Below, in pieces: positions 4,769-15,299 of a stretch of 64,000 nt of DNA. The notes under the pieces are model-generated. The model was not told the origin of the DNA. It saw only the letters and a list, made by a program, of their open reading frames with translations, and made no database searches. The stretch covers positions 67,167 to 131,166 of IMG/VR virus record IMGVR_UViG_3300032007_000037. One strand, 5' to 3'. The DNA comes from a virus. Lineage: Duplodnaviria; Caudoviricetes. Positions within the stretch are counted from its first letter, which is position 1, and every line of letters starts with the position of its first letter. The translations under genes were made by a program, and so were the position numbers.

Positions 4769-5710
4769 ATGAAGAAAACAAGTAATCATTACAGTTTCCT
4801 TGTAGTAGGTAAAACTGAAGAATCAAAAGAAGCGTCTGAGGGATTTAAGAAGTATGTAGGTATAGGCGCTTCAAAAGTATTAGCCATCAATCCAACCAAA
4901 GCAGAACTGGAAAAGATTTATGGCCGTGAACTACAAAATGACCCTGAGTACACTGTAGAACGTGATGATGTTAAGGGTGTTGTAGTTGATATTATTGTAC
5001 AGACAGATCCTGAATTGTGCAATGGCGTAGACATGATTAACCATTTGAGATTTAACCTATTCCCATCTAAGGCATTTAACAAAGACCAAAGTAAGGTTAG
5101 AGTAGTTGATACCTTCGGTAATGCTCAGTGGATGAATACTGAGGATGCAAATGCCCATAAACCTTGTTTAACTGCAAATGGAGATCCTCAGAAGATTGAT
5201 AAGGACTATCGTATCTCTTTCATTGGAGAGGCTGATATTCTTGATTTCTTACGCAAGTTCTTATTTAACAAGGATTCATTCAATATGCCCAACGGTGTGT
5301 GGACTAAGAAAGAAGATGCAAATGATGTTATTATCGGCTTTGAAGACCCCAAAAAATTACTTGGTGGCAATGTATCAGAAGTAAAAGAACTGATTGCTTT
5401 GCAGCCTAATAATAAGATTAAGCTTCTTTATGGTGTCAAGCGTGTGGAAGATGCACAGACTGGTAAGGTGTCTTATCGACAGACTGTATGCTCAAGCTAT
5501 GATATGATGCTCCGCAATAATGCTACTGCATCGGCAGTTACACAATTGGAGAAAAACCTTGCATCAGCTAAATCAGCAGGCATGTACTCTAATATAGAAT
5601 ATGCTGTTCAGGAGCTTAAAGAATGGGATGTTCAGCCAACTACTATAACTCAGACTAATGCCGCAGCTGTCCAACCAGCAGCAGCTCCTAAGAAAGCTCC
5701 CTGGGATTAA
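4769..5710 (+). CDS. putative single-stranded DNA-binding protein
   Basis: Lies between the AAA ATPase and the primase. Low-complexity tail ends in PWD, as in many phage SSBs. Confidence 0.55.
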   Translation: MKKTSNHYSFLVVGKTEESKEASEGFKKYVGIGASKVLAINPTKAELEKIYGRELQNDPEYTVERDDVKGVVVDIIVQTDPELCNGVDMINHLRFNLFPSKAFNKDQSKVRVVDTFGNAQWMNTEDANAHKPCLTANGDPQKIDKDYRISFIGEADILDFLRKFLFNKDSFNMPNGVWTKKEDANDVIIGFEDPKKLLGGNVSEVKELIALQPNNKIKLLYGVKRVEDAQTGKVSYRQTVCSSYDMMLRNNATASAVTQLEKNLASAKSAGMYSNIEYAVQELKEWDVQPTTITQTNAAAVQPAAAPKKAPWD

Positions 5711-7624: not shown

Positions 7625-9880
7625 ATGATATATAATAGAGAAGAAGGCGAAGTTACTATATTAGGTGATGTCCAAAAATATAAGGTGAGTATTGATGAGA
7701 AGAATATTAATCATATTGTGACTATTCTATCATCTAATCTTTATTCCTACCCTATGATTTCATTCTTAAGGGAGACGGTATCTAATGCAGTAGATTCACA
7801 TATAGAAGCAAAGACAGAGGAGCCTATTGTAATTTATAGGACAAATAATGATATTTCTATCAGAGATTATGGCACTGGAATTTCACCAGAAAGGTTTCAA
7901 GAAATATATATAAATATAGGCTCTTCTACCAAAAGAACATCCAATAACTACATAGGAAATTTCGGTATAGGTCGCTTCTCGGCACTAAGTGTAGCTGATT
8001 TGGTTAATGTTACTTCATTCTATCATGGTAAGGCATATTACTATGTAATGAATAAAGACATTGACCAACTTCATATAGATTTATTGTATGAAAAAACTAC
8101 GACAGAACATGATGGAGTCGAAGTAAAAGTTCCTATTAAAACATGGAATACCAACACTCTTAGATGTCTTAGTTTTATTGATAATCTATATGTTGAAAGT
8201 GATCTTGAAGCCGATCAGTCCAGACTAGAAAGGTTTAACCAAAGAGAAATAATTTCTTATAAGAATTTTAAAATCATCAGCAAAACCTTTGATAACGAAT
8301 ATCAAGATACAGAAATACTATTTGGTAAAATACCTTATACTGTGAATTATAATTCTCTTTGGGAATATGATGATATGTGGCATGCCTCATGGGAAAGATG
8401 TTTTAAATACATATATCCTCAGTTAGAAATAGGTGACTTGGATATCACCCCGAATAGGGAAAGCCTTCTATATTCGGAAAGGACAAAGGAAACTCTTCGA
8501 AAGAAATATGATGAGTGTATAGATGAATTAACTGAGATGTGGACTGCTCAATGCAATACTGAATATACTGATTTGTGGCAGTATATTAGTGATGTTGTAA
8601 CACATTCAGGAAACACATTAATTATAAAAGGAAATTATGTACTTCCTATCAGTAACAATTTATCTTATAATGCCGTATATAAAAGTAGGCCCGAATGGAA
8701 TGATGTACCATCCAAAGATAAATTATCTATTTTAAATTGCATCTGGACTAAAGATATTGAAGTTTTGGGCAAATTTCAACATGGAGATTTATTCCAAGGT
8801 TATAGTGTACGTGGATCTTACCAAATTAGAAGACTCCATAATGAACATTGGTTTGATTGGGAAAATAAAATGGTGCTTGCATTGCCAAATAGAGCAGGCT
8901 TTACAAGTCAATACTTTAAAGGTTTTGTAACAGAGAAGTATAAAAAAGATTATATACTTTTACTAAAACAATTTCCAGAGACTCTTTCTCATAGACACAT
9001 TAAGTCTTTACTAAGGTCAACGTTTCTAATATCTGATTATAAGGATGCAAAGAGCAGAAGGTTTATGTTCCAGCTTGTCAGGGAAATGATTAATTATATC
9101 TCAGACAAGGTTGTTGTTACAAATGTTATGGACAGCAAGGAATATGCCCAATACAAGAAAGATAACACTATAAAGAGGGAGTTCAAGCATACAGAAAATA
9201 TTAGATTTTCTATTTATACATGTGAGCACGAAGATGCCTATAATATTTCCTTAAAGACTTCCGAAGTAATAGGGTATGTAAGAAAAGAACTTAGTTGTAA
9301 GAAACATAGAATTGTTTATACCGACATTGATAATCCCTTTATATCTGCATTTGTAGGATTAGGCTATCGCAACCTTGTTATTTTGGCTGTTTCAGCAGGT
9401 AAGGTAGACGCGTTAAAAGAAGACATGCCAGATTGGATAAGGCCTATAGAAGAGCTCTATTCTGAGGATAATAGGATTCTTCAGAAATATGCCGCAATTC
9501 AATATATTGTGAATAAACCTCATCTGTATATAGGAAGGATGCGATTTATGCCAAACCCGATTCAAGATGCTGTTAGGATATTGGAAGGATATAAAGATAA
9601 ATATTCTTTCTTGGGGCATGCTAGTTGGCAGCAAAAAGATGATGCAAAACAACTATTAAAAGTTGTTCCTGAGGAAAAATACGATAGAACAATAATGGCA
9701 TTGTATCATAACACTAAACGATACATGAATATAGCCTATCTTTTATATTCAACGAGCGAAGTTGGCTTAGAAACTTATTTCATATTAATGAAACAGAAAA
9801 GATTCCGAATCAACTTTAACTATTATGTAAAGATAAGAGAAAGAATTAACTATTTAACTAAATTGTATGAGAGTAATTAG
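7625..9880 (+). CDS. rIIA: rIIA-like protein (N-terminal GHKL/Hsp90-like ATPase)
   Basis: NLYS..RETVSNAVDSH, IRDYGTGIS, GSSTKR and IGNFGIGRFS motifs. Overlaps an rIIB-like gene. Confidence 0.85.
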   Translation: MIYNREEGEVTILGDVQKYKVSIDEKNINHIVTILSSNLYSYPMISFLRETVSNAVDSHIEAKTEEPIVIYRTNNDISIRDYGTGISPERFQEIYINIGSSTKRTSNNYIGNFGIGRFSALSVADLVNVTSFYHGKAYYYVMNKDIDQLHIDLLYEKTTTEHDGVEVKVPIKTWNTNTLRCLSFIDNLYVESDLEADQSRLERFNQREIISYKNFKIISKTFDNEYQDTEILFGKIPYTVNYNSLWEYDDMWHASWERCFKYIYPQLEIGDLDITPNRESLLYSERTKETLRKKYDECIDELTEMWTAQCNTEYTDLWQYISDVVTHSGNTLIIKGNYVLPISNNLSYNAVYKSRPEWNDVPSKDKLSILNCIWTKDIEVLGKFQHGDLFQGYSVRGSYQIRRLHNEHWFDWENKMVLALPNRAGFTSQYFKGFVTEKYKKDYILLLKQFPETLSHRHIKSLLRSTFLISDYKDAKSRRFMFQLVREMINYISDKVVVTNVMDSKEYAQYKKDNTIKREFKHTENIRFSIYTCEHEDAYNISLKTSEVIGYVRKELSCKKHRIVYTDIDNPFISAFVGLGYRNLVILAVSAGKVDALKEDMPDWIRPIEELYSEDNRILQKYAAIQYIVNKPHLYIGRMRFMPNPIQDAVRILEGYKDKYSFLGHASWQQKDDAKQLLKVVPEEKYDRTIMALYHNTKRYMNIAYLLYSTSEVGLETYFILMKQKRFRINFNYYVKIRERINYLTKLYESN

Positions 9881-10485
9881 ATATAAAAACAGTCTTACGA
9901 TTGTTTTATCTGGTGGTAGAATTCTACAGACAGATGAATGTACAGATGAAATGTTTGAAAAAATAAAACAATTTCAAATAGAGGATAATGAGTTTGAAAC
10001 CATTAATCTACTTATCCCAGAAGCAGTTGATGAATATGCAGATAATGTTCGTCTGATCAAATTTTGGGAAAAGGAAGAAGAGTCATCAGAACTTACAAAG
10101 AAGGGTAACTCTGTTTATTGGAAATCCGTATCTTCTCTATCCATGCCTATGGAGTTTGCTGAAAGAGTTATGAACGCTGAAAAGAATAAGAATAAAGATG
10201 AGCTGGAAGCTTACAGAAATTTCTGGACTCTTCTTTCTCTTAATCCTGATAAGGCCGTAAGAGAGAATCTCTTTAAATTCCTTGAAAAGTGGGGTATGGT
10301 TATTACTAAGTCAGGTTTATTTGTAGGTTATAGAAACGCTGACATTTATAAGAAATTAGATAAGTATGGGGATACTGTTTATACTGACCATCATTCTGGA
10401 ACTACAAGGATTATGATAGGCAAAATGGTTACTCTTGACAGGGCAGAATGTGACTGTGATAGCAGCGTGGAGTGCTCTAGGGGGT
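9867..10485 (+). CDS. rIIB: rIIB-like protein, exon 1 (spliced product 334 aa)
   Basis: NFW..LSLNPD..VRENLFKFL, ITKSGLFVGYR and DHHSG motifs. CSRGL joins HLGG of exon 2 to give the conserved CSxGLH motif. Confidence 0.85.
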
Positions 10486-10562
10486 TAATGTGTAGCCCAC
10501 TTAGGAAGTAATTCCTTTGGAAAATAACGGGTAAAATCGGTGAAGCTATCTAATGTAAATTT

Positions 10563-10623
10563 TAAGTACAACTTATAGGATTCATTAAGTAGTTGTCCTG
10601 TTGGAGCACATTTCATACCTTTA
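10563..10623 (+). promoter_or_regulatory. internal promoter of the intron endonuclease
   Basis: TAAGTACAACTTA (10563), ATTAAG (10584) and TACCTTTA (10616), with the same spacings as the portal promoter. Confidence 0.55.
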
Positions 10624-10643
10624 CAGCAATTAAAAGTAAAGAT

Positions 10644-11468
10644 ATGAAGTACACAAAAGAACAACTGCTTGAGATTTATCAAAAAGAATGTATCACAAAT
10701 AAAATGCGATACAAGGAAGTTAGAGAGAAATATGGTATCCCAAGAGGAACATGGGATTATTGGATTAGAAAAAGAGGAGGCAATTGTGCAGATAAGAGAT
10801 TTCATCGTCCTAATGACGACTTCTTTGATTCAATAGATTCTGAGATAAAAGCATATTTACTTGGGTATCTATATGCGGATGGTTATATTGCATCTGATGG
10901 GAGGATAGGCATAAGATTACAAGAAGATGATGTAGAAATATTGGAAATGATACAAAAATATATTTGTCCAAATAACCCCATAGAATCTTCAAATAATCAA
11001 AATTTTAAAAGGAAACCACAAAATTCAATCAGATGGAAGTCTTTACATATGTACAACAAACTAAAGGAATTTGGATTTTGTATTGATAAGACTCACACAG
11101 ATTCAAATATATTCCAATTAGTTCCTGATAATATGAAGATCCATTTTCTAAGAGGGTATACTGATGGCGATGGTAATCTACAAGTATACAGACTGGATAA
11201 TGGGACTCATCGAAAAATAAGCATATGTTGGTGTAACGGTTGCTCTAAGATATTAAAGGATATTAAAGAATGGTTACCTAATTATTCTTGGCATCTCTAC
11301 GATAATAAAACCTTTTATACACTTGGCTGTTATAACCATAATGAGGCATATGAAATAATCTCATTATTATATAAAGACGCGAATTTCTTTCTAACAAGAA
11401 AAATGAATCAATATAAAATGTTGTTTAATTTTTATAGTAATACCGAGCTAACTAAGCAGATTGCGTAA
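10644..11468 (+). CDS. intron-encoded LAGLIDADG homing endonuclease
   Basis: Motifs AYLLGYLYADGYI and HFLRGYTDGDGNL plus an N-terminal HTH-like segment. ATG 10644 is preferred over the ORF-track start. Confidence 0.9.
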   Translation: MKYTKEQLLEIYQKECITNKMRYKEVREKYGIPRGTWDYWIRKRGGNCADKRFHRPNDDFFDSIDSEIKAYLLGYLYADGYIASDGRIGIRLQEDDVEILEMIQKYICPNNPIESSNNQNFKRKPQNSIRWKSLHMYNKLKEFGFCIDKTHTDSNIFQLVPDNMKIHFLRGYTDGDGNLQVYRLDNGTHRKISICWCNGCSKILKDIKEWLPNYSWHLYDNKTFYTLGCYNHNEAYEIISLLYKDANFFLTRKMNQYKMLFNFYSNTELTKQIA

Positions 11469-11627
11469 GGCTGCTAAGTAGTGTAGAGCGTAGGAGGTGA
11501 ATAAATATAATCCTCCCAAGAGTATCCGTCTCCTGGAAAAACAGGAGCAAAATGTACGCCGAACTGTAAGGAGATTTAGAGTACTTACAGAACATGAGGA
11601 TAAAAAGCCTCATGGATAACAAAATTG

Positions 11628-12013
11628 TACACCTTGGAGGTACAAGCTGGCTATCACAGAACTACTATGGTTCAGTTGGGTTAGTCTGCTTGTGCAACCC
11701 TACTGATGTAATTGCCGTTCCTTGGGCAAGAGCTGAATATGGAAAACTGAGATGCTGTGCATACCTTCCCATAGCTGTAGCTAAATATGATGATACTGGT
11801 CATGTAATCCCATTTAAGACAGATAGTGGATTTGAGGAGCCTTTTGTGCCTACTATACTGTATGATGGAATAATGGCTACAGAAGAAGAGGCAACTTATA
11901 AGATACCTATTCCAAAAGACATAGATGTTACTTTATACGATCATCAATCCATTCCAGATAAAATTCTTTCTATTGCCAGACAATATATGAAGAAAGAAAA
12001 TGACGATAAGTGA
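11628..12013 (+). CDS. rIIB: rIIB-like protein, exon 2
   Basis: HLGG..WL, LCNPTDVIAVP and YGKLRCCAY are typical rIIB C-terminal motifs. Confidence 0.85.
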
Positions 12014-12179
12014 TTATTTTGGTGATTGGTCTAGAGTAATAGACTTACAAGAAGCCGATAGAGTAATGAAAAGACTATTGGCCTCTTCTGTCATCATATG
12101 CCCTCAAATAGAAGACCTCTTCAAATGCTTCAGGCTGTGTAAGTTAAATAATGTAAGGGTAATTATTATTGGACAGGAT
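12000..12179 (+). CDS. ung: uracil-DNA glycosylase (family 1), exon 1 (spliced product 227 aa)
   Basis: Ends in VRVIIIGQD and joins PYP of exon 2 to give the catalytic GQDPY motif. Confidence 0.9.
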
Positions 12180-12182
12180 TAA

Positions 12183-12243
12183 TTAGAAATACTTAGGGAC
12201 TTTTTTAGATAGGTATTTATCTAGGTCAACTGCCGTATCTTTG
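12183..12243 (+). promoter_or_regulatory. internal promoter of the first ung-intron endonuclease
   Basis: TTAGAAATACTTA (12183), TTTAGA (12204) and TATCTTTG (12236-12243). ATG at 12264. Confidence 0.65.
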
Positions 12244-12263
12244 GCACATAATTCAGGGTAATT

Positions 12264-12950
12264 ATGAAAAAGTACAAAGAGATTGTAGTTGAAGACGATT
12301 TAAAACAGCTTCTTATTGGAAGCATTCTTGGAGATGGTTGCTTTTGTTCTGTTAGCAAAACAACTAAGAATATGTGTTTAAGCATTGCTCATTCCATTAA
12401 ACAAAAGGATTACTTGGAATATAAATGGAGTATTTTAAATAAATACAATTTAGTACCTCCTATCCGTGAAAACACTATTCATAATAACAGATATACTCAT
12501 GATTTAACAGAATGTAGATTTAAAACTCGCCTAAACCCTATTTTCACAGAAATTAGAAATAATAATTATGATGAAACAGGACATAAAAGAGTTAAAGAAG
12601 ATTTTGTTAAAGACCTGGAACCATTAGGATTGGCAATCTGGTATATGGATGACGGGTATGTGACAAAGAATTCTTGTATATTATCTACTTGTTCTTTTAC
12701 AATTGAAGAGCAAAACATTCTAGCAAAAATACTATTAGATAAGTTCGATTTGCATTTTAATGTAGGTAAACATGATAATAGTATGTATCTCCAAGCAAAA
12801 GATTTTCCAAAATTTAAGAAGTTGATTGGGAATTATGTTATACCATCTTTACAATATAAATTAGTTCCGTATAGTAAAAGGGTTCTGTATAAATCGGGTG
12901 AATTGCTGGAACATCCCAATGGGACAATCAGCAGCCAAGCACAAGCTTAA
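12264..12950 (+). CDS. LAGLIDADG homing endonuclease (I-SceI-like) in the P1 loop of the ung intron
   Basis: Motifs LLIGSILGDGCF and LAIWYMDDGYV. The 3' end runs through the ribozyme P3-P6 region. Confidence 0.9.
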   Translation: MKKYKEIVVEDDLKQLLIGSILGDGCFCSVSKTTKNMCLSIAHSIKQKDYLEYKWSILNKYNLVPPIRENTIHNNRYTHDLTECRFKTRLNPIFTEIRNNNYDETGHKRVKEDFVKDLEPLGLAIWYMDDGYVTKNSCILSTCSFTIEEQNILAKILLDKFDLHFNVGKHDNSMYLQAKDFPKFKKLIGNYVIPSLQYKLVPYSKRVLYKSGELLEHPNGTISSQAQA

Positions 12951-13013
12951 CAACTTGTGAAGGTTCAGAGACTAACAGTATTATATAAATAAGAACAAGC
13001 TAAATGTTTGATT

Positions 13014-13628
13014 ATGACGAAAGAAGAAAAGGCAACTTTAATTGGAATAGTGCTAGGTGACGGGCATCTGGCATGTAGTAGATACAAAAACTGTAATGCT
13101 TTTCATCAAGAAATTTTCTTAATTCATTCAATAGAACAAAAAGAATATCTTGAGTGGAAAGTTAATCTAATACATTCCATTATAGGAGGGAACAAGCCCT
13201 CTATTATTGAATTTAGCAATAATGGTTATCACGGAGTTAAAGCTATGAAGTCTCATAGATATTTTAGAGTTTTATATAAATATTTATATAAGAATGGAAC
13301 TAAAACAATTCCTTTGAAAGCTCTTAATAGATTAACTCCCTTAGCTATTGCTATATGGTGGATGGATGATGGTTCATTGTGCAAGAAAGTTAGAAATAAT
13401 AAAATTCACGCATGGGAACTATATTTGAACACCTATTTAAGCAAAGAGGAAAATCAAGTTATAATTGACTATTTCCAAAATGTATGGAATGTTAAATGGA
13501 ATCTTAATATGAGTAAGGGTAAGTATAGACTAAGATGCTCTACACAAGAAGGTAGAAAGTTTCTTAATATCATACGACCTATTGTATCTCAAATTAAGTG
13601 TATGCAGTACAAATGTTTAGAAATCTAA
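13014..13628 (+). CDS. second LAGLIDADG homing endonuclease (I-SceI-like) in the P7.1 region of the ung intron
   Basis: Motifs TLIGIVLGDGHL and IAIWWMDDGSL. Lies between the R element and the P3' strand. Confidence 0.9.
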   Translation: MTKEEKATLIGIVLGDGHLACSRYKNCNAFHQEIFLIHSIEQKEYLEWKVNLIHSIIGGNKPSIIEFSNNGYHGVKAMKSHRYFRVLYKYLYKNGTKTIPLKALNRLTPLAIAIWWMDDGSLCKKVRNNKIHAWELYLNTYLSKEENQVIIDYFQNVWNVKWNLNMSKGKYRLRCSTQEGRKFLNIIRPIVSQIKCMQYKCLEI

Positions 13629-13650
13629 TTAACAGTTGAAACTGAATATT

Positions 13651-13788
13651 ATGGAAAAATTAAAAGTATATTGTCCCTATTCTTCTTTAGAATTAGGGCG
13701 GGAAACAATTAAAAAATTAACAAATATTTCTTTTGATAAGCCTTGGTATTTAAAATATAATACTGACACGAGTGCCCGACACTTATAG
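13651..13788 (+). CDS. possible 45-aa intron mini-ORF
   Basis: Reads MEKLKVYCPYSSLELGRETIKKLTNISFDKPWYLKYNTDTSARHL. AT-rich leader. Runs into the ribozyme core as the endonuclease ORFs do. Confidence 0.35.
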   Translation: MEKLKVYCPYSSLELGRETIKKLTNISFDKPWYLKYNTDTSARHL

Positions 13789-13864
13789 TAAGTGAAGATA
13801 TAGTCCGAACTACATGGTAACATGTAGAAATAGAAGATAAAGAGCTTCTATGGTAACAATTATG

Positions 13865-14368
13865 CCTTATCCAAACATTATTAACGGCAAACCTGTAGCT
13901 ACAGGTCTTGCCTTTGCTAATTCCCCTAACGTATCAGAAGAATTCTATTCACCATCTTTAGCTGTCCTAAAGGAGTCAGTAATTGACTATACTAAACCAC
14001 ACGGAATAACTACTTTTGATGCGAGTTTGGAGAAGTGGGAAGAGCAAGGAGTTTTATTACTTAACTCATATTTATCTTGTGCAGCAGGTCTACCTAATTC
14101 ACATATGTTACTTTGGAGACCCTTCACAAAATCCTTACTCATTAATTTGTCTGAATGTAGCCCTGGATTAGTGTATGTACTAATGGGAAGTACGGCACAA
14201 TCCTTTGAACCTTACATTAATGCTAAATGTAATTATGTCTTCAAGACCAAACATCCCGCATACTATGCAAGAGCTCATGAGAGAATGCCTTCAGACATTT
14301 GGAAACAGGTTAATAAAATTCTCATTGGTCAAAGCGGCTATGGGATTGAGTGGTTTAAAGAAGAATAA
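13865..14368 (+). CDS. ung: uracil-DNA glycosylase, exon 2
   Basis: PYP, ATGLAF, SPSL, WEEQGVLLLNS, SH..LW, VLMG..AQ and HPAY motifs. Confidence 0.9.
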   Translation, partial: PYPNIINGKPVATGLAFANSPNVSEEFYSPSLAVLKESVIDYTKPHGITTFDASLEKWEEQGVLLLNSYLSCAAGLPNSHMLLWRPFTKSLLINLSECSPGLVYVLMGSTAQSFEPYINAKCNYVFKTKHPAYYARAHERMPSDIWKQVNKILIGQSGYGIEWFKEE

Positions 14369-14392
14369 TAACGATTAAAAAAAGTAAAACTA

Positions 14393-14731
14393 ATGAAAAA
14401 GTGTTTTATATGTGAAACGGGTAGAGAGATTAAGTTTGGTGACATCGTTAAACTTAATTTAACCAAAAACTTAAAGGATGGTTCAACAGTACACAAAGTT
14501 ATAAAGTGTAAATTCCATCCTATTTTAATTGAGCCTCTTTTAGAGCAAGGTATTATAGAATTAAGAGACGTGGAAGACGAAGAAAAGCTTGATGATGAAA
14601 ATCAGGAAGTTGAAGAATTCTTCGAAGAGCTTCTTAAAAGGTATAGCGAACTTGAAGAAAGGGTTATAGAGCTTGAAGGTATTGTAGCAGAATTAACCGA
14701 AAAACCAAACAAGAATGAGCGAAAGAATTAA
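14393..14731 (+). CDS. hypothetical protein
   Basis: 112-aa ORF with an acidic coiled-coil C-terminus. Confidence 0.7.
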   Translation: MKKCFICETGREIKFGDIVKLNLTKNLKDGSTVHKVIKCKFHPILIEPLLEQGIIELRDVEDEEKLDDENQEVEEFFEELLKRYSELEERVIELEGIVAELTEKPNKNERKN

Positions 14732-15299
14732 GAATGTAGACCATGCCCAAAGACCCAAGGAATATAATGGCAAAAAGTTTAGAAGCGATCTTGAAAGAAA
14801 CACAGCAAGAACTCTTGATGTATTAAATATTCCCTATGAATATGAACCTAGGAAAATTGTGCTTCTGGAGGGTTTCAGATGCCCTTATCAAAAAGATAAG
14901 GTTCGAGCCCTTACATATACGCCTGATTTCATCATAGGGAATATTATGATTGAATGTAAGGGATTTGAAACTCCTGAATGGAAAAACAAGAAAAAGCTTG
15001 TATTTAGATACCTGATTGACAATGAGCCAGACACAATGTTTTATCAGATACATGATTGCAAGAAGTCTTTACTTACTGTCTTAGATAATCATTGGATTAC
15101 TTTGGGAAAGGTTATTAAGGTGACTTCTAAGTCCACCAAAAAGAACCCTTCTGTGGAATATAAATTCTCTTCAATTAGAGAGGCTATGGATACCCTACAT
15201 TTAACAGGAAGGACTATAGCTCCTATTATGCGCTCATTGATGGGTAATGCTCAGTTTGTATATGATTATAACTGGAAGTTAGAGAACTTAAACTTATAA
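14715..15299 (+). CDS. T7 endonuclease I-like PD-(D/E)xK nuclease, putative Holliday junction resolvase
   Basis: FRSDLE, YEYEP, YTPDFII and IECKG motifs. NUMOD1-like C-terminus (YKFSSIREAM). Confidence 0.75.
   Translation: MSERIKNVDHAQRPKEYNGKKFRSDLERNTARTLDVLNIPYEYEPRKIVLLEGFRCPYQKDKVRALTYTPDFIIGNIMIECKGFETPEWKNKKKLVFRYLIDNEPDTMFYQIHDCKKSLLTVLDNHWITLGKVIKVTSKSTKKNPSVEYKFSSIREAMDTLHLTGRTIAPIMRSLMGNAQFVYDYNWKLENLNL

Follow-up and report, generated by a model that had tools for sequence, protein, structure and literature searches.

A group I intron in a phage uracil-DNA glycosylase gene carries two LAGLIDADG endonuclease genes, probably acquired independently

The DNA analysed here, a 64,000-nt window that makes up the second half of the 131-kb IMG/VR virus record IMGVR_UViG_3300032007_000037 (the record bears terminal repeats), contains a gene for a family-1 uracil-DNA glycosylase (UDG), ung. 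This gene is interrupted between the Asp and Pro codons of its GQDPY motif by one T4-like (IA-type) group I intron, within which lie two open reading frames (ORFs) for LAGLIDADG endonucleases, ORF1 and ORF2 (Table 1). We estimate a probability of roughly 75% that this is a single intron with two independently acquired, intact endonuclease genes, ORF1 homing into ung and ORF2 into the intron itself. All coordinates are positions within the window, L-numbers denote fetched relative loci, and a slash within a sequence marks a splice junction or an insertion point.

The first part of ung lies in an ORF (12000-12182) that ends ...VIIIGQD and is closed by a TAA directly after the 5' splice site (12180-12182); a downstream ORF in 13850-14368 holds PYPNIINGKPVATGLAF... 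from 13865. Exon 1 ends ...GGACAGGAT (GQD) at 12179 and exon 2 begins CCTTATCC (PYP) at 13865, such that splicing would restore the motif. Exon 2 matches PF03167 in Pfam (34 bits, cut-off 24.3) and solved family-1 UDG structures (E 9e-14), and its KHPAYY aligns with HPSPLS, the C-terminal His motif. Four related phage contigs (L002-L005) encode an uninterrupted UDG, with exon-2 matches of 62-66% identity, in which ...G(Q/M)DPYP... bridges the predicted junction, and the UDG of the window is therefore split exactly inside the catalytic GQDPY. As unspliced RNA stops at the TAA, active UDG would require splicing. A sequence-only reading of this DNA had proposed both the GQD/PY split and the adjoining stop codon, and these, like all the other elements that it assigned to 12180-13864, were recovered.

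The predicted intron, bounded by T12179 and exon 2, has G13864 as its terminal base, as a group I intron demands; T12179 pairs with G12882, and CAGGA at the end of exon 1 pairs with TTCTG. Rfam at the gathering threshold gave no match anywhere in the window. At a relaxed threshold, RF00028 matched 12828-13012 (model positions 5-158, 41.1 bits), which covers P3-P7, and 13677-13827 (40.9 bits), which covers the 3' elements P8, P7' and P9. The core helices are backed by covariation among 12 distinct related introns. P5, P6a, P7.1, P8, P9 and P9.1 change on both strands in a compensatory manner, P4, P6 and P7 are invariant, and three of the seven P3 pairs (12894-12900 with 13773-13779) show compensatory changes (TCGGG with CCCGA, CAGGG with CCCTG, TTGGG with CCCAA, and TCGGA with TCCGA). 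The P7 pairing, 12970-12974 with 13802-13806, was read from the sequence. Helices were folded separately for each sequence; a MAFFT alignment mis-registers P5, P6a and P8.

Several lines of evidence indicate that only one ribozyme core is present, as the sequence-only reading had held. The intron contains a single R element, GTTCAGAGACTA (12963), and a single S element, AAGATATAGTCC (13795), and the two RF00028 half-matches are complementary parts of one model. A second catalytic core was sought through R and S elements and through Rfam down to E ≤ 10, and neither a second core nor any other ribozyme signal was found in the intron. In the UDG introns that carry ORF1 only, the core is uninterrupted, and in two of them (L006 and L022) RF00028 matches over the full model (1-253) with 79.3 and 66 bits (cut-off 50). 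An intron of 1685 nt with two endonuclease genes is typical of fungal twintrons (PMC4964425), which raises the possibility of two introns, nested or adjacent, that each carry one of the endonuclease genes. We consider this extremely improbable: the two strands of P3 flank the ORF2 insertion and show covariation, which excludes a twintron, and the insert has no ribozyme elements and is bounded by a hairpin rather than by splice sites.

ORF1 occupies the P1 loop. The guide GTTCTGT (12882-12888) lies 702 nt from the 5' splice site, against the ~700 nt given by the sequence-only reading, and 5 nt before P3; it was the sole sequence found that pairs with the end of the exon. Relatives conserve it with GTTCTG and GTCCTG variants, and one-sided G-U to G-C changes occur in P1, which is otherwise almost invariant because the exon is constrained by coding. 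In two introns of the same family, in genes for a JAB/MPN protease (JAB) and a dUTPase (dut), the guide likewise precedes P3 by 4-7 nt, the P1 loops measure 10 and ~75 nt and P2 is absent: the JAB intron L058 reads GTGCAT/TAATTTGTGA-GTGCAC with P3 six nt further on, and in the dUTPase intron L066 the ~75-nt loop is followed by GGCGTC. We also looked in the 84-nt 5' leader for another guide, one that would put ORF1 in P2, and rejected this layout, as none was found and there is no room for P2. ORF1 aligns with I-SceI over residues 1-201, including both motifs (E 1e-14), and has a dN/dS (ratio of non-synonymous to synonymous substitution rates) of ~0.07-0.1. Its last ~27 codons are ribozyme sequence, overlapping the guide and P3-P6a, and its stop codon (12948-12950) lies inside the P6a loop, in line with the proposal that this endonuclease reads on through P3-P6.

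ORF2 is located between P7 and P3' and is enclosed by an exact long-range stem, an arrangement that had likewise been predicted. Variants of this stem in L036 and L066/L067 (CAG with CTG, TAG with CTA, TGG with CTA) preserve the pairing, and in empty introns the pre-existing 3' arm pairs only as CAGT with ACTG. Both ORF2 motifs align with PDB 6x1j and I-SceI. ORF1 and ORF2 share only 30% identity. Both score well above the LAGLIDADG_2 cut-off and have two motifs whose acidic residues (...LGDG... and ...MDDG...) align with I-SceI-family structures. The dN/dS of ORF2 measured against copies in thyX introns is ~0.05, and with values of 0.05-0.1 and aligned acidic residues, both endonuclease genes look functional.

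Table 1. Coordinates of the ung exons, the intron and the elements within it
Feature	Position	Strand	Description
UDG exon 1	12000..12179	+	60 codons, ends GQD, last base T; collinear with intron-less UDGs of L002-L005
Group I intron	12180..13864	+	1685 nt, starts TAA, ends G; RF00028 half-matches, covarying helices
Putative promoter element TATCTTTG	12236..12243	+	~20 nt upstream of ORF1 ATG; in 5' leaders of most related introns
ORF1, I-SceI-like LAGLIDADG endonuclease	12264..12950	+	228 aa, P1 loop; PF03161 125.2 bits (cut-off 25)
Internal guide sequence	12878..12888	+	AAGG 12878-12881 (P10, pairs with exon 2 CCTT), G12882 (pairs with U-1), TTCTGT (P1, pairs with exon 1 ACAGGA)
Ribozyme core, 5' half	12894..12974	+	P3 12894-12900, P4 12904-12909, P5, P4' 12928-12933, P6/P6a, P7 5' strand 12970-12974
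Closing stem, 5' arm (extended P7.1)	12976..12986	+	11 bp; CAGTATTATAT; exact complement of 13755-13765
Inserted ORF2 cassette	12979..13635	+	657 nt, measured against the empty site GACTAACAG/TTGAAAC; each edge bears a TAACAG repeat
ORF2, I-SceI-family LAGLIDADG endonuclease	13014..13628	+	204 aa from ATG 13014 (TTG 13008 also open); PF03161 115.8 bits (cut-off 25)
P7.1/P7.2 tail	13636..13754	+	starts TTGAAAC; holds start of 45-50 codon ORF
Closing stem, 3' arm	13755..13765	+	ATATAATACTG; arm also in ORF2-less thyX introns
Ribozyme core, 3' half	13773..13864	+	P3' 13773-13779, P8 13780-13794, J8/7 and P7' 13795-13806, P9 13810-13827, P9.1 13830-13851, terminal G 13864
UDG exon 2	13865..14368	+	167 codons, starts PYP; PF03167 and solved-UDG matches

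Natural one-ORF forms of the intron identify the probable resident gene. A further 19 viral contigs (L006-L024) have an intron at the identical GQD/PYP position that carries ORF1 only, with R and S just 69-73 nt apart in all 19; the same site thus harbours introns with ORF1 alone and, in the window, an intron with a second ORF. The ORF1 homologues of these introns are 64-74% identical to the copy in the window. Their host UDGs are 43-51% identical to the window's UDG, with one (L018) at 63%, and the window's UDG is closer to the intron-less UDGs (61-63% identity). These values indicate that the intron has moved horizontally between diverged ung genes. ORF1 is most likely the resident enzyme, which would cut intron-less ung at the GQD/PYP codons and drive homing of the whole intron. 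The intron-bearing ung alleles listed all read CAGGAT/CC(T/C)TA, and all four intron-less alleles differ at ≤6 nt from the junction (CAAGAC, CAGGAC...CCC, ATGGAT...CCA), which fits either co-conversion combined with the requirements of P1 and P10 or target-site resistance. An exact-pattern search of viral contigs for the P7/ORF2 junction returned no second two-ORF UDG intron, and megablast of 11500-14800 against the phage collection returned no match.

Some further features of these ung loci bear on ORF1 and its intron. Two of the intron-less alleles, L002 and L004 (~4990-5000), encode GMDPYP in place of GQDPYP (ATGGAT/CCA), a change that abolishes both the P1 pairing and the sequence common to the listed intron-bearing alleles; such variants may resist homing. 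In three ORF1-only UDG introns, exon 2 is directly preceded by A and not by G (ATTA/CCTTAT; 4848-4851 in L019, 4844-4847 in L020 and L021). Either these introns have lost the terminal G or they use another 3' splice site; with the nearest G upstream, 12 nt would be added in frame.

The 5' leader of the intron contains the element TATCTTTG, which fits the Bacteroidota -7 promoter consensus, TAnnTTTG. On the strength of this fit, we propose that it is probably ORF1's own promoter. A covarying hairpin lies between TATCTTTG and the ORF1 start codon in relatives (~3975-4000 in L006-L024; 12236-12263 in the window), and together the two elements look like private promoter and translational control for the intron endonuclease. 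We also considered a 'pseudo-homing site', TTAGGTCAAATACCTTATC, in leaders of the L006 type, which agrees with the intron-less homing junction TTAGGTCAGGAT/CCTTATC in 15 of 19 bases, the four in the centre being changed. We did not rely on it, since by a rough estimate this match is only marginally above chance and it is weak in the window. The stretch lies at ~3955-3980 in L006 and, in weaker form, at 12222-12240 in the window; an operator or a scar of invasion would be conceivable origins.

ORF2 has a different distribution. Homologues with 85-99% amino acid identity occupy this same place after P7 in introns of three other genes, namely thyX (L036-L038 and L059-L064), where the RHR motif is interrupted, the JAB/MPN protease gene (L058 (866/1839), 99% identical, splitting the JAMM motif as GLVH/SHH) and the dUTPase gene (L066/L067 (1583 / ~415), splitting motif III as GCVDA/DYRGE). 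The insertion sites of the ung, JAB and dut introns fall in catalytic-motif codons, and the exon junctions are mutually unrelated: GGACAGGAT/CCTTATCC in ung, GTGTCCCAT/GAATTTGT in thyX, TTAGTGCAT/TCACATCA in JAB and GTTGACGCT/GATTATCG in dut. Over 12970-13642, the window and the JAB intron differ at 4 of 673 nt. Their flanks diverge abruptly on both sides (34 of 68 nt differ on the left, 89 of 113 on the right), leaving only 9 and 7 nt of shared flank beyond the cassette ends.

ORF2-less thyX introns read GAGACTAACAG/TTGAAACTAT straight through, and because they read across the site, the insertion can be delimited to 12979-13635. The site lies around GAGACTAACAGTTGAAACTAT in one such intron (L048), and its counterpart in the ORF1-only UDG intron L006 is GACTAACAGGTGAATAG. 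The exact unoccupied site (25 nt, with GACTAAYAG/TTGAAAC at the insertion point) occurs 55 times in 54 viral contigs: 42 occurrences lie in thyX introns, 12 match no UDG, thyX, JAB or dut exon query nearby and 1 has a distant upstream UDG-like match. An exact-pattern search of viral contigs for the occupied P7/ORF2 junction yielded two besides the window, both of them known thyX loci. The thyX introns occur in three forms: HNH gene alone, HNH plus ORF2, and ORF2 alone. Between L036 and L062 the ORF2 proteins and the matched thyX exon segments are identical, and the difference lies in an ~790-nt HNH gene in P5 of the thyX intron; L037 and L063, also with identical ORF2 proteins, differ again in the presence of the HNH gene, a clean presence/absence polymorphism for this other endonuclease gene. 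The genome that contains the window holds neither a thyX nor a JAB homologue as a possible internal donor, and no further PF03161 gene. A tree of ORF2 proteins places the UDG and JAB copies as sisters (support 96/99) nested among thyX copies; the partial sequences L066/L067 were omitted from this tree, its outgroups are distant and it has a midpoint root only.

These observations bear on what ORF2 recognises. Enzymes that are 85-99% identical cannot recognise four unrelated junctions, and the core around the insertion is the sole sequence that the four kinds of intron share, so the recognition site of ORF2 is most likely the DNA for the ribozyme core and P7.1, not an exon. They also fit the sequence-only proposal of successive invasions in which one enzyme homes into the intron itself: the 19 ORF1-only UDG introns, with R and S close together, would represent natural intermediates, and the near-identical cassette at one post-P7 site beside unrelated exon junctions points to the intron as the target. 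We suggest the following order of events. The resident element would have been the ribozyme with ORF1, homing into intron-less ung. Later, the 657-nt ORF2 cassette would have been inserted just after P7 at GACTAACAG/TTGAAAC, with ORF2 cutting the DNA that encodes GAGACTAAYAG/TTGAAAC and then being copied into the break. The first eight bases of the cassette (TATTATAT) would extend the pairing with the pre-existing 3' arm to an 11-bp clamp, and the single ribozyme could still fold because this clamp would hold P7 and P3' together and insulate the core from the 657-nt insert. The intron of the window would then be a resident ung-homing element super-infected by an intron-homing gene. We lean, if only slightly, towards a broader proposal: that the ORF2 lineage recognises the R element, P7 and the start of P7.1 and is a parasite of introns rather than of genes, hopping among ung, thyX, JAB and dut introns and supplying its own clamp helix.

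ORF2 might instead have reached the ung intron by ordinary recombination between conserved intron cores during co-infection, its real target being an exon junction, such as that of intron-less thyX, and ORF2 being a stowaway in ung without mobility. In keeping with this, thyX is by far the commonest home of both the site and ORF2, ORF2 can be the sole endonuclease gene of a thyX intron, the UDG and JAB pair nests among thyX copies in the tree, and the genome of the window lacks thyX. We nevertheless consider it unlikely. Copies that are 85-99% identical reside in introns of four genes whose junctions are unrelated. The ung and JAB copies, which both lie outside thyX, differ by only 4 of 673 nt with edges exactly at the cassette ends, and breakpoints so exactly placed are better explained by cutting at that site than by crossovers at random.

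A role for ORF2 mainly as a maturase, aiding the folding of a large interrupted ribozyme with its endonuclease activity lost or irrelevant, is less probable still. LAGLIDADG maturases are established in fungal mitochondrial introns, ORF2 is under strong purifying selection, and a 1.7-kb intron with ~700-nt inserts in two loops might need help in folding. However, ORF2 keeps both catalytic acidic residues, its near-identical presence in another intron points to very recent mobility at the DNA level, and ORF1-only and ORF2-less introns are common, which implies that the ribozyme is independent of ORF2.

A number of observations weigh against the interpretation that we prefer, namely one intron with a resident ung-homing gene and a later, intron-homing gene. 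With regard to the ribozyme, each RF00028 half-match falls below the gathering score (41 against 50 bits), and covariation at position -7 of P1 is only partial (most introns have A-T or T-A there, some a mismatch). With regard to ORF2, some introns of thyX, JAB and dut have no endonuclease gene other than this one, which would also fit a relaxed or exon-directed specificity. The divergence between UDG and thyX copies (dS ~1) means that most of the measured purifying selection may predate the arrival of ORF2 in ung. The ORF1-only UDG introns found carry GACTAACAG/GTGAATAG and not the TTGAAAC half-site, and the 112-nt tail after ORF2 has no relative among the fetched loci, so that the direct empty precursor of the window's intron is unseen.

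The tail also holds a short ORF (13636 or 13651 to 13788), which begins just after TTGAAACT and crosses the 3' arm of P7.1 and P3' into P8. Its frame (...YNT...SA...) is the same as that of a 64-aa ORF in thyX introns (4637-4831 in L036) that L036 and L051 conserve, and TTGAAACT-N-ATG precedes various ORFs of this loop in other introns. This ORF may be a remnant or the C terminus of an earlier loop ORF.

The T4 introns of td, nrdB and nrdD (sunY) carry I-TevI, I-TevII and I-TevIII, one endonuclease gene each, of the GIY-YIG or HNH type, in P6a or P9.1. The intron of the window resembles these in its IA type (for the classes, see PMC3984707), its P7.1-type peripheral helices, its R and S elements (GTTCAGAGACTA and AAGATATAGTCC) and its insertion in conserved codons of a nucleotide-metabolism gene, and it too has an endonuclease gene, presumably separately expressed, in a peripheral loop. 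It differs in having two LAGLIDADG genes, in the P1 loop and P7.1, and in lacking P2. ORF1 and ORF2 are both single-chain, two-motif proteins like I-SceI of the yeast mitochondrial omega intron and other PF03161 members such as PDB 6x1j, but are phage-borne.

The closest analogues are the 'biorfic' introns of fungal mitochondria, including nad1-i4 and cox1-i7 of Podospora anserina (PMC4964425) and cox2-i1 of Hypomyces aurantius. In the Podospora cases, the same intron occurs with one or two ORFs, and the optional ORF, together with a short piece of its flank, moves as a unit into an intron already bearing an ORF (PMC4964425). The present case differs in being from a bacteriophage, in the residence of the cassette in introns of four genes and in its defined unoccupied site, found 55 times. 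Among phages, crAss-like gut phages are dense in group I introns detected through their endonuclease domains (Yutin et al. 2021, PMC7886860). Our loci resemble them in being human-gut contigs of ~60-190 kb with UDG, Thy1 and dUTPase in the repertoire, a likeness of setting and genes and not a placement of the 131-kb genome as crAss-like. In the passages of it that were searched, neither two-endonuclease introns nor a UDG intron nor cassette exchange between introns came up. The intron of mycobacteriophage LittleE, considered as a parallel, was set aside as it has one antisense LAGLIDADG gene, not two. In the literature searched, which left most subscription journals outside, so that absence is not proof, we found no phage intron with two endonuclease genes and no phage ung intron.

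Two side observations concern other endonuclease-bearing introns. In L039 (2572-4630), from a GC-richer phage, two adjacent introns lie between two flanking ORFs, and in the second an HNH ORF runs through the R element into an ORF2-like LAGLIDADG sequence (43% identity) as one 446-aa frame, giving another two-endonuclease intron. Upstream of the intron described here (9867-12013), a 291-aa LAGLIDADG ORF (10593-11468; PF14528/PF00961) lies between an rIIB-like N-terminal ORF (9867-10511, phrog_609) and an ORF at 11594-12013. It probably marks a second endonuclease-bearing intron, in rIIB.

Mobility in group I introns is usually explained by endonuclease genes invading pre-existing introns, and natural intermediates are scarce. 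The window locus and its relatives provide a full series in uncultured gut phages, from intron-less genes through one-gene and two-gene introns to dozens of exact empty sites, and the cassette's transfer between different introns is recent enough for 669 of 673 nt to have stayed the same. Introns such as these split single genes into several ORFs, which matters for the annotation of such phages. As two-ORF introns are already known in fungal mitochondria, the chief interest here is a portable cassette with many defined empty sites. If the ORF2 lineage is indeed a parasite of introns rather than of genes, the cassette could spread to this family's ORF-less introns, whatever their host gene.

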